Notes: generated from the sequence alone by a model not told the origin. Shown: positions 3,886-59,449, numbered from the stretch's first letter. The stretch is DNA of 64,000 nt from Candidatus Aenigmatarchaeota archaeon (GCA_016187395.1 JACPJV010000006.1:62345-126344); one strand, 5' to 3'. Translations and numbers: made by a program.

Positions 3886-4242
3886 TTGATGTCTATGTTA
3901 GCAAATGCCCAAAGATTTGAGCGCTTTTTGGCAAGAAGGGGAAGCTTCAGGGTACAATGCCCTCGACAAGAACGCGGACGTGTCTTCACAAGACGTAAGT
4001 ATGATGTGTTTTTGGATGGCGAGAAGATCGGCGTTTATACAGAGGTTGAAGGGAGATTTCTAAGCGGCGGGATGACATCCGAAGGCATAATTTCGCAGGT
4101 TTTTGAAGGGCGCGTACCGGGTTATGAATTTTCGACCCCTCAAATAGTTCTTGAATATTCACGGGATAAAGGTACGGGATTTCCTGCAGGAACAAGAACA
4201 TCTTCGCGGAAAGACGGGCATGCGTCAATACCATTTCCCTAA
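3886..4242 (+). CDS. hypothetical protein (118 aa)
   Basis: ORF only. Basic N-terminus. Confidence 0.3.
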   Translation: MMSMLANAQRFERFLARRGSFRVQCPRQERGRVFTRRKYDVFLDGEKIGVYTEVEGRFLSGGMTSEGIISQVFEGRVPGYEFSTPQIVLEYSRDKGTGFPAGTRTSSRKDGHASIPFP

Positions 4243-4857
4243 TCACAACTCCTTCCTGACTAATTTTGCGAATTCCTTTGCGCGCTCTTCTATGATATCT
4301 AAAGCGCGTATGAACACATCAGCCCCCGAAAGTCCTGTTGTTGACTCTATGTTGAATGTAAAACCACCGCCGCCTTTTGAATACCCTATTGTTGCTGCCT
4401 GATGCTTGGCGTGGTTTTTGCCTATTCCAAGCCTTGCAACTGCCACGAGATCGACATTTTGCCCTTCCAGAAGCTCTGCTATAGGTATTTTCATGTCATC
4501 CGGCTGCACGTGCTTGTCGTCGCTTTCCATGTCTCCGGAATAGACCGTGGAAGGGCCGTTCTTTTTCAGCCTCAGCTTTGCAGTGCAGTTGCTGCATCCC
4601 TTTCCTCCGCATTTGCACTCTTCTGAAAGCTGATAGCCGTTTGGCCATTTGAGCGGAATCATTGCAAGCCTGTGGGCCAGAATCTCGTCGACAAGCCCTG
4701 AATTGTTAACCGTGATATCGACGTAGTCGACAGCCATCACTGGAATTTCGCTGTAAGCTACGCGCCTTAGCGCATTCGCAAAGCCTGCGCTTATGTCCTT
4801 TACAGAAACCTTCAATATTTTTCCTTTATTCTTGACAACATTTACTTCCATGATCAT
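4243..4857 (-). CDS. rpoD: DNA-directed RNA polymerase subunit D (Rpo3), archaeal, with Fe-S cluster cysteines
   Basis: 204 aa. Rpb3/RpoA-insert fold signature (VDYVDITVNNSGLVDEILAHRLAMIPL). Cys cluster CKCGGKGCSNC typical of archaeal subunit D 4Fe-4S domain. Lies downstream of rps11 as in the archaeal operon. Confidence 0.85.
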   Translation of the reverse strand: MIMEVNVVKNKGKILKVSVKDISAGFANALRRVAYSEIPVMAVDYVDITVNNSGLVDEILAHRLAMIPLKWPNGYQLSEECKCGGKGCSNCTAKLRLKKNGPSTVYSGDMESDDKHVQPDDMKIPIAELLEGQNVDLVAVARLGIGKNHAKHQAATIGYSKGGGGFTFNIESTTGLSGADVFIRALDIIEERAKEFAKLVRKEL

Positions 4858-49888: not shown

Positions 49889-50035
49889 GTGGGCCTGACG
49901 GGATTTGAACCCGCAACATCTTGCTTAAGAGGCAAGCGCTCTATTCCCTCCGTTCCCTTCCATCCCTTTCTTTGGGGTTCTCCAAGACCTTTCTTTCGGG
50001 AAAGAAAGGGATTGGACCAGGTTGAGCTACAGGCC
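49889..50035 (-). tRNA. tRNA-Lys(CUU) with a ~73-nt intron in the D-loop (non-canonical position ~20/21)
   Basis: Minus-strand read GGGCCUG-UA-GCUC-AACCUGGU[intron]A-GAGC-G-CUUGC-CUCUUAA-GCAAG-AUGUU-GCGGG-UUCAAAU-CCCGU-CAGGCCC-A. All four stems pair (one G-U in T-stem), U33 present, anticodon CUU. Intron contains hairpin CCUUUCUUUCCCGAAAGAAAGG. No CCA encoded. Confidence 0.8.
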
Positions 50036-55590: not shown

Positions 55591-56463
55591 ATGGGAGTAT
55601 ACGGAGCAAATCATATGGATATGCAAAAGGAAGGCGCAACAGAAGCGCATCGCGAAAGAAGCGCGAAAACAGCAGCTGCTTCAAAGGCTTATAACATTTA
55701 TAAACTTTTCGGTGATAACAATTTAGTGACAGTTATGACAACAGCTACTTTGCCTGAACTGACCGGGAATCTTGTCGTGCCAGCTGCCGCAGGCAGCTAT
55801 CCTGCATTGGGCGCAGCCTACAGGCACGAAGGTTCTTCCATCGATTACTCACCATGGCTTGTAAGAACAGGCAAAAACTATTATGGCTCCAAAGCAGAAA
55901 TCCCGGAAGGCATAAGGATGTCCACGGCAGCTGAAGAGCTTGCTCTGCAGCTTGCCCTGGAGAAAGCAGGCAACGACCCAAGAAATGCAGAAGTTTTCAA
56001 CGACCTTTTCGCCAGAAATGAAGAGAAATATTACGCATGGCAATGGACAGAAACAGGGCTCCGCGTGCCAAAGGGCCGCAAGCCTGATGCTTATGAAACT
56101 GATGCGCAGGGCAGAAAATACTGGCAGCGAATATTGCTTATTGGCGACCAGGAAATAGGCGACTTCCCTGTTCCAGAAGGCAATGGAATGGTAATTGTCG
56201 AATGGGACGAGGTTTCCGGACTGCCCAGAGTAACAGAGCAAATAGCTTATCCTCACGAGCCATACACAACACATTTCTGGTTTAATCCTAATCCTGATAA
56301 AGACAAATTATCAGGTCACTACGACGTTGCCATCGGGCGCAGGGGCGCCTGGCCTCACGGTGTGGACGCCAGGTGCCTGAGCGTCGATGCGTCCTACGGG
56401 CGCTGGGATGCGGATTCCGACGGCGGGCTTCCGCCCTGTTCGGGGGTCGCTTCCGCAGATTGA
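55591..56463 (+). CDS. DGR target protein (variable C-terminus; CLec-like VR ending ...GRW.A.SDGG)
   Basis: The last ~40 codons contain the variable repeat (56326-56435). Start uncertain (ATG at 55591 or 55615/55621). The longer frame from 55408 is rejected because it spans an intergenic hairpin array. Confidence 0.6.
   Translation: MGVYGANHMDMQKEGATEAHRERSAKTAAASKAYNIYKLFGDNNLVTVMTTATLPELTGNLVVPAAAGSYPALGAAYRHEGSSIDYSPWLVRTGKNYYGSKAEIPEGIRMSTAAEELALQLALEKAGNDPRNAEVFNDLFARNEEKYYAWQWTETGLRVPKGRKPDAYETDAQGRKYWQRILLIGDQEIGDFPVPEGNGMVIVEWDEVSGLPRVTEQIAYPHEPYTTHFWFNPNPDKDKLSGHYDVAIGRRGAWPHGVDARCLSVDASYGRWDADSDGGLPPCSGVASAD
56326..56435 (+). repeat. DGR variable repeat (VR) followed by GC hairpin (IMH-like)
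   Basis: Aligns to the TR with 12/12 cleanly alignable substitutions at TR adenines. Immediately followed by GGCGG-gctt-CCGCC hairpin absent from the TR. Confidence 0.75.
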
Positions 56464-56846
56464 GAAAGAGCTTGCAAGAATAAATCCAAAGGAAGTTGAG
56501 GAAGCGCTCCTGCAAAGAATGAGAAAGGATTTCAGAGAAACGCCTTTTCCGGAATTTCTGGCGAAGTATAAATTATAAATACTGAAGTTTGTTCTAATTT
56601 ATTGTCTTGGCCAACGCCGGTTGCATATCAAAAGATTGGCGCCAAAAAAGCCTGTCCCAAAGCACCAGTCGCATGTGCATCGGCGACCCCGAACTACATG
56701 CCTGTTCGTAGATGAAGCTGTGTTTTGGCATAGCTTATGACATGAAATACAGCAGCGATAGCTGGTAAAGGCAGAAGTTGATTTTGCCTCGAACGCTAAA
56801 GCTGCAGTGGGGCAGGCATTTGCTGCCTTTGGCGGGCAGGCTACAA

Positions 56847-57042
56847 GTTGCCATCGGGCGCAGGAGCAACTGGCATCACGGTGAGGATAGCAATTGGGTT
56901 TCAATTGCCAGCATATACGCCAGGTGCCTGAACGTCAATCTGCTGAAGGTTCTCGATTTTCAGCAGAGCGCAGATGCGAACTACGGGCGCTGGAATGCGA
57001 AATCGTTTCAAAACGACGCAAATTCCAACGACGGCTTCCGCC
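56847..57042 (+). repeat. DGR template repeat (TR), adenine-rich (many AAC/AAT codons in frame)
   Basis: gttgccatcgggcgcaggAgcAActggcAtcacggtgAgga...cgccaggtgcctgaAcgtcAat...gcgAActacgggcgctggAatgcgAaAtc... Contains three in-frame blocks (30, 36, ~18 nt) absent from the VR. Confidence 0.75.
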
Positions 57043-57069
57043 AATAGTTCTGGCTGGCCAAGACTCATA

Positions 57070-58131
57070 ATGAAATCTTACAGCAATCTGTATGGTCAGC
57101 TATGCTCTATGGAGAATCTGAAGCTGGCGTACAAAAAGGCGCGGAAAAGCAAAGTCTCCAGGTGGTATGTTAAGGAATTTGAAACGGATTTAAGCCGGAA
57201 TCTGTTGCAGTTGCAAAAAGAATTGCAGGAGATGAGCTATGAGCCAAGACCGCTAACACAATTTGTAATCAAAGACCCGAAAACGCGGATAATCTCCGCC
57301 TCCAATTTCCGCGACAGAGTTGTTCATCACGCTTTATGCAACATTATAGAACCAATTTTCGATAAAATATTCATATACGATTCTTATGCCAACAGAAAAG
57401 GCAAAGGCACGCACGCAGCGTTGAAGAGATTTGATTGTTTCAGGCGAAAGGTTTCTCAGAATGGCAGATTATTGCCAAACGCCAGAGACAACAACCAAGT
57501 TTTTGGTTATGCATTGAAGGCAGACGTAAAGCACTATTTCGATTCAGTGGACCACGAGGTAATGATGCAGATAATAAGAAGGAAAATCAAGGATGAGAGC
57601 GTCCTCTGGCTGATAAGGAAAATTCTGGATAATCACAATTGCAAAACACCGGGCAAAGGCATGCCCATAGGCAATTTGACAAGCCAGTTCTTTGCAAACG
57701 TGTATCTGAATGAACTGGATTATTTTGTAAAGCATCATCTCAATGCCAAATACTATGTTCGTTACGTTGACGATTTTGTCATACTGGATGCCCCAAAGCA
57801 GCGCCTTGAATTCTATAATGCACAAATAAAGGAATTCCTAAAATCAATAAAGCTTGAACTTCACCCGGAAAAATCCAAGGTTATGCCGCTGCATGCCGGA
57901 GTCAAGCTCCTTGGATTCAGGGTTTTCTACAGATACAAACTGCCAAAGAAAAGCAATCTGAGAAGAATAACGAACAGAATAAACGGTTTTATTGATTTGT
58001 ACAGAGAGGGCATTATGGACAAGGCAGAAATTCTTGAACGAGTGGAGGGATGGAATGCCTATGCGATTCATGCAAATACCTATAAGCTAAGAAAGCAGAT
58101 GATGAAAAATTTACGAAAATCTTTGCGATAG
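57070..58131 (+). CDS. DGR-type reverse transcriptase
   Basis: RT motifs: RVVHHALCNIIEPIF, YALKADVKHYFDSVDH (motif A), YVRYVDDFVIL (YxDD), and the DGR-specific IGNLTSQ motif (MPIGNLTSQFFANVYLN). Confidence 0.85.
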   Translation: MKSYSNLYGQLCSMENLKLAYKKARKSKVSRWYVKEFETDLSRNLLQLQKELQEMSYEPRPLTQFVIKDPKTRIISASNFRDRVVHHALCNIIEPIFDKIFIYDSYANRKGKGTHAALKRFDCFRRKVSQNGRLLPNARDNNQVFGYALKADVKHYFDSVDHEVMMQIIRRKIKDESVLWLIRKILDNHNCKTPGKGMPIGNLTSQFFANVYLNELDYFVKHHLNAKYYVRYVDDFVILDAPKQRLEFYNAQIKEFLKSIKLELHPEKSKVMPLHAGVKLLGFRVFYRYKLPKKSNLRRITNRINGFIDLYREGIMDKAEILERVEGWNAYAIHANTYKLRKQMMKNLRKSLR

Positions 58132-58528: not shown

Positions 58529-58891
58529 TTGCATGACAATGGAAAAATGATAGGCATGAAAGACAGCATCTTTGTGAACTATTTTGGCGACAGCCCCCTT
58601 GTGCGTATCCTGAACTTCCTTATCATAAGCAAGGATTTCGACTATTCCATGACTGACATAGCCAAAGGAGCGGGAGTTGGTTGGACCTCTTTCACGCGTG
58701 CATGGAAAATACTCGAGAAGAAAAACGCAATCGTGCAGACTCGTACAATAGGGCGTGCAAAATTGTACAAATTAAACACGGCTGACCCTACCGTGCAAAA
58801 GCTTGTAAAATTGCACTGGGAGATTATAAAGTCCGAGACAGACAAGATTTTTGGGAAGAAGCTTCCGGTAATGGTGCCGGGTAGGGTGTAG
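58529..58891 (+). CDS. winged helix-turn-helix transcriptional regulator candidate
   Basis: SPLVRILNFLI...DYSMTDIAKGAGVGWTSFTRAWKILEKKNAIVQTRTIGRAKLYKLN resembles an archaeal wHTH DNA-binding domain. Confidence 0.45.
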   Translation: MHDNGKMIGMKDSIFVNYFGDSPLVRILNFLIISKDFDYSMTDIAKGAGVGWTSFTRAWKILEKKNAIVQTRTIGRAKLYKLNTADPTVQKLVKLHWEIIKSETDKIFGKKLPVMVPGRV

Positions 58892-59005: not shown

Positions 59006-59449
59006 TCATCTTTTCCCGAAAGGGTCCACGGCATGTATCCACGGGACTTTGATGTCCTTTACGTTTTCCGTGTATAGATTCAGAACGCCATTTTGCTTCA
59101 TCGTCGCAGCCAGAAGCGAATCCCAGTAAGGCATGTTGTATTCATCTGAGATTCTTGCCGCCTCAACAACCGTCTTATGGCTGAAGTCTATCTTCACCCA
59201 TCCGGAAAAATCGACAATGTCGCTAATGAAGTTCAGGGCTTCTTTTTTGGTCAGAAGTTTTTTTGTCGTGGTCACTGAAAAGAACTCTGAGAGATTCTGT
59301 GATGATACAGCAAATATTTCATCACGGGAAAAGCACCTGTCAATGAGCCTCTTTGCTATTGCATGCTTTACGGAGTCTGCAGCGTCGTGGTAGTAAACCA
59401 CAATATTTGTGTCAATTAGAAATAGCTCACCCTCTGTCATAGAGTTCAT
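59006..59449 (-). CDS. vapC: PIN-domain toxin (VapC)
   Basis: LFLIDTNIVVYY N-terminal PIN signature. 147 aa. Confidence 0.65.
   Translation of the reverse strand: MNSMTEGELFLIDTNIVVYYHDAADSVKHAIAKRLIDRCFSRDEIFAVSSQNLSEFFSVTTTKKLLTKKEALNFISDIVDFSGWVKIDFSHKTVVEAARISDEYNMPYWDSLLAATMKQNGVLNLYTENVKDIKVPWIHAVDPFGKR

Follow-up and report, generated by a model that had tools for sequence, protein, structure and literature searches.

How does a template repeat (TR) that carries three extra blocks of sequence give rise to a variable repeat (VR) that lacks every one of them? The question is raised by a locus in 64,000 nucleotides (nt) of DNA from a Candidatus Aenigmatarchaeota archaeon (GCA_016187395.1, JACPJV010000006.1:62345-126344), a stretch that we analyzed whole and refer to as the window. 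The window contains a diversity-generating retroelement (DGR) that belongs to an Aenigmarchaeota (DPANN) archaeon: its reverse transcriptase (RT) has the motifs of the DGR clade (IGNLTSQ at residue 200 and YVDD at residue 232), its TR and VR form an adenine-type pair, and a target gene has the VR at its 3′ end. In one respect, the locus departs from what defines a DGR, in that the genomic TR is not colinear with the VR and becomes so only after three blocks are removed. We propose that these blocks are probably archaeal bulge-helix-bulge (BHB) introns, which would be taken out of the template before reverse transcription.

Three hairpin-bearing blocks distinguish the TR from the VR

We compared the TR and VR of the window by a repeat search and with an adenine-tolerant affine aligner under strict gap settings, because MAFFT fails across large gaps and lenient gap settings over-extend the alignment. 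The sequence itself, the repeat search, and the affine alignment agree on four colinear matching segments with three TR-only blocks between them, of 30, 36, and 21 nt. A first-pass annotation of the window had put the excess of the TR at about 85 nt; the exact figure is 86 nt (196 versus 110), or 30 + 36 + 21 − 1, as the VR has one extra G. The same annotation gave the first two block lengths exactly and took the third, at about 18 nt, as too short. Each block contains a hairpin (GCAATTG/CAATTGC in the first, a 13-bp stem beginning TCTGCTGAAGG in the second, and TCGTT/AACGA in the third), and none of the three is found in the VR, so the earlier observation that hairpin-forming blocks are confined to the TR stands.

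Removal of the three blocks at the coordinates given in Table 1 leaves a 114-nt TR that aligns without a gap to the VR up to the extra G. Over the roughly 100 nt of this alignment there are 13 mismatches, every one at a TR adenine and none elsewhere. At the first junction, for example, the spliced TR reads GGTGAGG^ACGCCAGG and the VR reads GGTGTGGACGCC. The product encoded by the spliced TR, VAIGRRSNWHHGEDARCLNVNANYGRWNANSNDGFRQ followed by a stop, is typical of an asparagine-codon-rich DGR template. All three blocks have lengths divisible by three and are free of stops in the VR frame, and an open reading frame (ORF) at 56778..57047 spans them. Neither a second VR nor another copy of a block occurs within the 64-kb window.

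Blocks recur in related archaeal DGRs

One TR/VR pipeline was applied to 80 loci from genome assemblies and 80 from metagenomes (homologous RTs, DPANN type), to 80 viral DGR controls, and to the four closest relatives of the window locus. Blocks were counted when they were TR-only, internal, and at least 10 nt long. They were present in 23 of the 75 DPANN loci with a TR/VR pair, and the four close relatives add ten, which brings the total to 27 loci and 49 blocks. There was no VR-only block of at least 10 nt in these 27 loci, and none of the 73 viral loci with a TR/VR pair had an internal TR-only block, which bears out the earlier premise that the two repeats are normally colinear. Two viral candidates (L200 and L207) proved to be alignments over-extended past the end of the TR, and an 11-nt block in L060 was a repeat misalignment. 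Given the recurrence in 27 related loci and the absence from 73 viral controls, the blocks in the window are not there by chance; TR blocks are inherited and are common in the DGRs of this archaeal clade.

Block length runs from 13 to 57 nt. Of the 39 blocks that we analyzed in detail, 12 are not divisible by three in length (13, 17, 20, 22, 26, 31, 38, and 44 nt). As in the window, adenine mismatches between the TR and VR of the relatives far exceed other mismatches. Among 97 homologous targets with a recognizable VR, the spacing is exactly the short one in 79, is off by up to 4 residues in 17, and is clearly longer (by 7 amino acids) in a single case.

These data bear on the idea that the blocks are ancestral coding segments, either deleted in frame from the VR or kept in the TR for the sake of a second, full-length VR elsewhere in the genome; both versions had been suggested in the first-pass annotation. 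The window itself gives some reason to think so: its three blocks are all triplet length and stop-free in the VR frame, its VR is damaged by a 1-nt insertion, and the search for further VRs was confined to the 64-kb window. A related locus, L241, even has a homologue of block 1 in its VR (see below). However, the 12 nontriplet blocks stand beside VRs that are in frame, and this rules against deletions fixed in the VR. Homing, moreover, rewrites the whole VR, so that old deletions are incompatible with the adenine-only differences that flank all three blocks. In the relatives, too, only adenine substitutions are seen to either side of every block, the pattern that a VR would have after recent copying from a template free of blocks. 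The short spacing is exact in most of the homologous targets, no VR carries the blocks in the 27 loci that have them, and relatives that lack a given block (L004 and L245) match the spliced TR at identical junctions. We consider an origin from lost or hidden coding sequence very unlikely. The precise absence of blocks from in-frame VRs, despite nontriplet lengths, means instead that removal between TR and VR is exact.

Paired elements of the blocks are conserved

A BHB motif is defined by two 3-nt bulges with a 4-bp helix between them (PMC6379350). The blocks share a common order from 5′ to 3′: four exon nucleotides (H), a 3-nt bulge, a hairpin (h′) of 6 to 50 nt, four nucleotides complementary to H (H′), and a second bulge that begins with A. 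The segment that is missing from the VR consists of nucleotide 3 of the 5′ bulge, the hairpin, H′, and the first two nucleotides of the 3′ bulge, and in every fitted block its length is that of the hairpin plus 7. In the discovery set, this geometry fits 29 of 30 blocks at a register compatible with the VR, 17 of them with all four H pairs and at least three of the four hairpin-closing pairs. As a null, the same fit was attempted at other TR positions, where its frequency was 0.0025 (strict) or 0.034 (relaxed); after a mean of 4.7 permitted registers was allowed for, the binomial P values were 2e-25 (strict) and 2e-22 (relaxed). A validation set, fetched after the rule had been formulated, gave 9 fits in 13. 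Three of the misfits are over-extended alignments, and the fourth is a 13-nt intron of the hBH type that has an outer helix of 6 bp and lacks an inner stem.

For covariation, 38 introns, as we call the fitted blocks from here on, were aligned in MAFFT with their loops trimmed and their register fixed by nonrepetitive artificial anchors. Pairing is seen in 93.4% of cells for H and in 92.8% for the base of the hairpin, directly after the 3-nt gap. All four H pairs covary, and every pair varies on both sides. The covariation score was 0.917, compared with 0.204 for shuffled alignments (0 of 500 reached the observed value) and 0.08 to 0.18 when the partners were slid by 1 to 3 columns. Sequence is conserved at a few positions as well. 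In all 39 introns, nucleotide 3 of the 5′ bulge, which is the first base of the intron, and nucleotide 1 of the 3′ bulge are adenines, and 29 of the 39 have a hairpin whose first nucleotide is U and whose last is A. The invariant adenines and the U...A hairpin ends amount to more sequence constraint than the generic BHB definition demands.

Intron 3 of the window is a near-canonical example. It has four of four H pairs, a 5-bp outer helix (UGGAA/UUCCA), and a 2-nt bulge, and the minimum free energy (MFE) fold of the TR, a structure prediction that had been recommended as a check on the blocks, includes the whole motif. Homologues of the three window introns lie at the same sites in related loci: intron 1 in L001, L081, L004, L008, L089, L242, L243, and L244; intron 2 in L001, L002, L081, L086, L003, L005, L242, L243, and L244; and intron 3 in L001, L002, L004, L081, L089, and L242 to L245. 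All three are thus present in the window, L001, L081, and L242 to L244, site 1 is empty in L002 and site 2 in L004 and L089, and L245 has site 3 only. Where intron 2 is absent at the exact site (L004, L089, and L245), the TRs of L004 and L245 read exactly as the spliced form at the same junctions. The hairpins at site 1 diverge in sequence and keep their pairing by compensation: UAGCAAUUG/CAAUUGCCA in the window, UAGCAUCUG/CAGGUGUUA in L001, UGGUGGUUG/CAAUCACCA in L081, and UAGCG/CGCUA in L004.

Excision points predicted from the VRs

The cuts of the archaeal splicing endonuclease, EndA, fall between nucleotides 2 and 3 of the bulge on each strand. The VRs can be used to ask where the TR introns would be cut: when both cuts are shifted jointly, only offsets 0 and +1 from the EndA rule fit all 39 VRs. 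In 21 introns, nucleotide 3 of the 3′ bulge is C, G, or U, and the VR has that same base in 21 of 21. The +1 register would instead copy the junction base from an adenine, and TR adenines are unchanged in the VR at only 46% of 583 aligned positions; because all 21 VRs carry nucleotide 3 of the 3′ bulge, the +1 register is excluded. As predicted from the DNA, the 5′ exon ends at bulge nucleotide 2 and the 3′ exon starts at bulge nucleotide 3, the symmetric arrangement of cuts made by EndA. There is an asymmetry in the helix, in that its 5′ strand, H, is always kept and its 3′ strand, H′, is always removed. Retention of H and loss of H′, combined with the predicted symmetric cuts, are the signature of EndA. 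In the window, the cuts would fall at 56886/56887, 56916/56917, 56937/56938, 56973/56974, 57001/57002, and 57022/57023.

A block could also be lost if the RT copied the unspliced TR and skipped each hairpin by switching templates across the base of its stem. RTs are known to skip structured regions, each block does have a stable hairpin, and block 2 of the window is flanked by short imperfect direct repeats (GAACGUCAAU/GAGCGCAGAU). Such a jump, however, is expected to delete the stem symmetrically, whereas, without exception among the 39 introns, the 5′ strand of H stays, its 3′ partner is lost, and the junction lies between bulge nucleotides 2 and 3. The conserved 4-bp helix and 3-nt bulge, with 93% pairing and covariation, would have no role in the jump. 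Flanking direct repeats are missing from most introns (CUCG AAA ... CGAG ACC is an example), and the repeat in the window follows from an H that is nearly palindromic. Furthermore, five introns are nearly stemless, with an 8-nt insert (AUGUGUGU) or a 6-nt one (UAAAAA), and these are removed just as precisely. Hairpin skipping by the RT is, in our estimation, improbable.

The constraint at the bulges raises another possibility, namely, that the blocks are functional modules within the RNA of the DGR, such as hairpins that bind protein, and that a dedicated activity, not the tRNA-splicing machinery, removes or bypasses them. The adenines at two bulge positions in all 39 introns and the usual U...A hairpin go beyond a generic BHB, and the 3′ sites are noncanonical. 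Yet the geometry of the cuts is exactly that of EndA. No extra conserved gene lies beside the RT, where the neighboring genes vary by locus; the sequence and length of the hairpin (6 to 50 nt) are not conserved, only its pairing; and whether close relatives have an intron or not makes no visible difference. A dedicated activity thus seems to us an unlikely explanation. It had also been suggested that the blocks are structured elements internal to the TR. This comes nearest among the three explanations first offered and is too general, as the blocks show BHB intron anatomy and exact excision points.

A candidate splicing pathway

In the pathway that we propose for BHB introns, the leader RNA (RT-16; see below) and the TR would be transcribed with the introns in place. 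Host EndA would then cut each intron between bulge nucleotides 2 and 3, and a host RtcB-type ligase would join the exons, as in the established archaeal pathway. The spliced TR of 114 nt would be the template that the DGR RT copies, with errors specific to adenines, and the resulting cDNA would take the place of the VR. As archaea generally do, the host would possess both EndA and RtcB. The anatomy, the covariation, the excision points, the adenine-only differences, and the restriction of the blocks to archaeal DGRs in our sample are direct observations, which most likely reflect excision at the RNA level and by EndA. Perhaps the introns are passengers, tolerated in a stretch of DNA that itself escapes overwriting.

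Published work makes such a pathway plausible from two sides. EndA is present in the DPANN lineages examined, in diverse types (α4, (αβ)2, and ε2), and an inserted L3 loop in DPANN EndA accompanies a marked rise in the number of tRNA genes that are disrupted; the authors took this as a sign that substrate specificity had broadened (PMC5829648). There is also a precedent for a spliced template, in that a self-splicing td intron inserted artificially into the template of the Bordetella phage BPP-1 DGR was removed from the TR and the spliced RNA was what the RT copied (PMC5703328).

Several observations weigh against splicing by EndA. The outer exon-exon helix beside the 3′ bulge is paired in just 52.6% of cells, counted over its two adjacent pairs. 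MFE folds contain all four H pairs for 23 of 39 introns and a strict hBHBh′ motif for 1 of 39, with a bulge or internal loop of 2 to 5 nt. In the window, intron 1 (A.G) and intron 2 (A.C) each have one mismatch in H, which leaves three of four pairs. For each intron, the register was selected from the shifts that the VR permits, 4.7 on average; this inflates the fit somewhat, and the null model accounts for these shifts. A blind BHB scan of the TRs was unspecific, with 346 hits compared with 308 in shuffled sequence and more on the reverse strand, so the case for BHB introns rests on their coincidence with blocks that the VRs define. We did not locate EndA or RtcB genes in the window, in which no systematic search for them was made, and to our knowledge, no Aenigmarchaeota EndA has been characterized. 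Finally, relaxed motifs are efficiently cut only by EndAs of broad specificity (PMC6379350). The weak outer helices are consistent with relaxed motifs of the HBh′ type, with 3′ sites that are relaxed.

Reading frame of the introns and locus L241

That the blocks are in frame had been noticed for the window, where it is true of all three; over the family it is a bias and not a rule. Over the 39 introns, which come from the window and from loci L001 to L134, length is divisible by three in 27 (P = 5e-6 if the introns are independent, which they are not fully). Among the triplet introns with a known frame, 25 of 26 are stop-free in the VR frame; the corresponding counts for the other two frames are 15 and 12, and shuffled sequences predict 14.3. 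This bias suggests selection for tolerating read-through or retention.

The one clearly longer target among the 97, P0145 of locus L241, has seven extra residues (SEIAIMS) exactly at intron site 1. Its VR (L241 3600-3726) contains an in-frame 21-nt homologue of intron 1 that is BHB-like. The L241 TR (4191-4296) is without this homologue, is poor in adenine, and differs from the VR at seven nonadenine positions. The simplest reading of this single case is that an unspliced template homed into the VR and that the TR was overwritten by a spliced, mutagenized cDNA. A 169-nt apparent block in another locus, L129, was an alignment artifact, and L129 is also not the P0145 locus.

It is conceivable, if doubtful, that splicing is sometimes incomplete, in which case the introns would be optional in-frame cassettes that vary the length of hypervariable ligand-binding loops and DGR homing would carry BHB introns into protein-coding genes. 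Once homed into a coding gene, a BHB intron might be respliced from the mRNA or translated through. If introns are indeed retained in this way, length would be a new axis of DGR diversification, and there would be a mechanism for the origin of protein-coding BHB introns.

Other features of the locus

The coordinates of the locus are collected in Table 1. The RT is identical to NCBI HYW25_01125 from a Candidatus Aenigmarchaeota metagenome-assembled genome and has hundreds of close homologues in DPANN archaea. An archaeal host is also indicated by an Nre gene in the window, and the RT, the target, and all of the relatives are labeled DPANN.

Table 1. Features of the DGR locus, in window coordinates; the intron rows give the boundaries and elements predicted here
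Feature	Position	Strand	Details
DGR target gene	55615..56463	+	From ORF list; 282 aa as assembled; identical to NCBI HYW25_01115; 99% identity to P0121
Variable repeat (VR)	56326..56435	+	110 nt; colinear with spliced TR; C-terminal region of target gene, GFRPV motif at end
Extra G in GGG run of VR	56425..56427	+	From TR/VR alignment; target frameshifted just before conserved GFRPV motif
Candidate helix P0, 5′ strand	56604..56620	+	GUCUUGGCCA, then AC, then GCCGG; pairs with 57050-57064
Rfam RT-16 RNA motif (RF03019)	56679..56849	+	67 bits versus gathering score of 50; full-length model match; abuts TR on 5′ side
Template repeat (TR) with three putative introns	56847..57047	+	196 nt counted to 57042; spliced length 114 nt; encodes VAIGRRSNWHHGEDARCLNVNANYGRWNANSNDGFRQ and stop
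Putative TR intron 1	56887..56916 (30 nt)	+	H GUGA 56881-84; 5′ bulge GGA 56885-87; hairpin 56888-56910; H′ GCAU 56911-14; 3′ bulge AUA 56915-17
Putative TR intron 2	56938..56973 (36 nt)	+	H ACGU 56932-35; 5′ bulge CAA 56936-38; 29-nt hairpin 56939-56967; H′ GCGC 56968-71; 3′ bulge AGA 56972-74
Putative TR intron 3	57002..57022 (21 nt)	+	H UGCG 56996-99; 5′ bulge AAA 57000-02; hairpin UCGUU-UCAA-AACGA 57003-16; H′ CGCA 57017-20; 3′ bulge AA(U) 57021-23
Candidate helix P0, 3′ strand	57050..57064	+	CUGGC + UGGCCAAGAC; between TR end and RT start codon
DGR-type reverse transcriptase (RT)	57070..58131	+	353 aa; Pfam RVT_1, E = 5.7e-22

The extra G in the VR has a consequence for the target gene. 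The true C terminus of the target runs in another frame to 56578. Homologues of the target end in ...GFRPVRGSLPEIEKE...KYKL and are in a single frame throughout. When one G is deleted in silico, the target becomes 320 amino acids long, and the extension (...GFRPVRGSLPQIEKELARINP...KYKL) aligns with the C termini of the relatives, to residue 320 of the corrected protein in L081 and L001 and to residue 305 in L004. The extra G (region 56387-56578) is either a fresh gene breakage, perhaps an RT indel, or an assembly error in a hypervariable region. In the interval between the target and the RT, there was no Pfam-matching ORF and no avd was seen, although no search aimed at Avd was made.

RT-16 is the 5′ leader of this archaeal DGR RNA. 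In the window and in 16 of 20 relatives, it stands immediately 5′ of the TR, and in nearly every locus the end of the motif is within about 4 nt of where the TR begins. On the other side, the TR of the window is followed after only about 23 nt by the RT start codon. Two relatives, L081 (734-954) and L008 (3623-3853), have RT-16 matches that are 60 to 70 nt longer than the model, with extra leader hairpins; inspection by eye showed no clear BHB geometry in the additional sequence of either.

A candidate long-range helix, P0, would enclose RT-16 and the TR, with its 5′ strand at or upstream of the RT-16 start. In the window and relatives, its 3′ strand lies 7 to 13 nt after the TR and 3 to 8 nt before the RT start codon. 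A GUCC.../...GGAC core with compensatory distal changes is found in about 10 of 16 relatives (seen in L081, L089, L004, L009, L012, L116, L039, L086, and L014). The shuffle control is weak, with a mean stem of 9.1 bp compared with 7.6 bp, and P0 competes with the first RT-16 hairpin in some loci. P0 resembles the a1/a2 stem of retrons. We also considered whether the RT-16 and TR unit is flanked by a BHB that would allow its excision or circularization and rejected this, as P0 is without BHB geometry.

Just downstream of the DGR, on the opposite strand, is a PIN-domain gene (59006-59449, −), likely the toxin of a toxin-antitoxin pair, with a small unannotated ORF (58529-58891, +) beside it; the PIN gene has no evident link to the DGR. 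A tRNA at 49890-49957 (−) scores 33 bits in Rfam, just over the gathering score, and is intronless. ARAGORN in bacterial mode found no tRNA in the window and Rfam only this one, and hence there is no tRNA intron inside the window for comparison.

Discussion

A DGR whose template is interrupted by host-spliced introns is most likely new, although BHB introns and DGRs are each already known. We found no earlier report of BHB introns or of a naturally spliced template in DGRs in the searchable full-text literature, the coverage of which is incomplete. If our reading is correct, a retroelement template would be a new class of EndA substrate, beyond tRNA, rRNA, one mRNA coding region, and one 5′ untranslated region (UTR), and a housekeeping RNA-processing step of the host would be tied to a retroelement. 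The locus would also be a natural intron-loss experiment, in which introns precisely missing from the VRs are genomic proof of an RNA intermediate and of recent activity in DGRs of uncultivated DPANN archaea. There is a practical side as well: programs that find DGRs by expecting a colinear TR and VR would truncate such loci, miss them, or miscall them as slippage, which concerns about 30% of this clade's loci.

Unequal TR and VR lengths have been described before. In the survey of Wu et al. (2018), about 7% of DGRs differed in this way, which was ascribed to RT slippage at AAC repeats, and the set from the candidate phyla radiation (CPR) and DPANN was called unusual, with an "extreme example" figured (PMC5758913). 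The loci studied here share the inequality with those cases. The slippage indels, however, are small and lie next to AAC repeats, whereas the blocks are 13 to 57 nt long, TR-only, structured, and bounded by BHB elements and not by repeats.

In its general plan, the locus is like the DGRs of the BPP-1 type, with an RT that has IGxxxSQ and YxDD, a TR beside the RT, a VR at the 3′ end of the target that ends in GFR, and adenine-only differences. Unlike the intron engineered into BPP-1, the introns proposed here would be natural, multiple, and inherited, and they are predicted to depend on protein (BHB) rather than to splice themselves. A further difference is that the structured RNA, RT-16, is 5′ of the TR, while the structured spacer of BPP-1 is 3′ of it. 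The window matches the Rfam RT-16 family above its gathering score, but the family covers the leader alone, and the introns lie downstream in the TR.

BHB introns are known from tRNA, rRNA, the crenarchaeal cbf5 mRNA, and one haloarchaeal 5′ UTR (HVO_1309) (PMC7714728). The TR introns resemble archaeal BHB introns in the 4-bp helix between bulges, the predicted cuts between bulge nucleotides 2 and 3, and the fate of the helix, whose 5′ strand stays in the exon and whose 3′ strand leaves with the intron. They resemble them also in their short and variable sizes (13 to 57 nt), in the presence of several in one RNA, and in the archaeal host, and they share relaxed HBh′ and hBH variants with the BHB substrates of DPANN and crenarchaeal species (PMC6379350, PMC5829648, PMC7714728). 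They differ from the known BHB introns in that the substrate would be the noncoding template RNA of a retroelement, in that the motif has two invariant adenines, and in that the outcome of splicing would be written back into DNA, in the VR.

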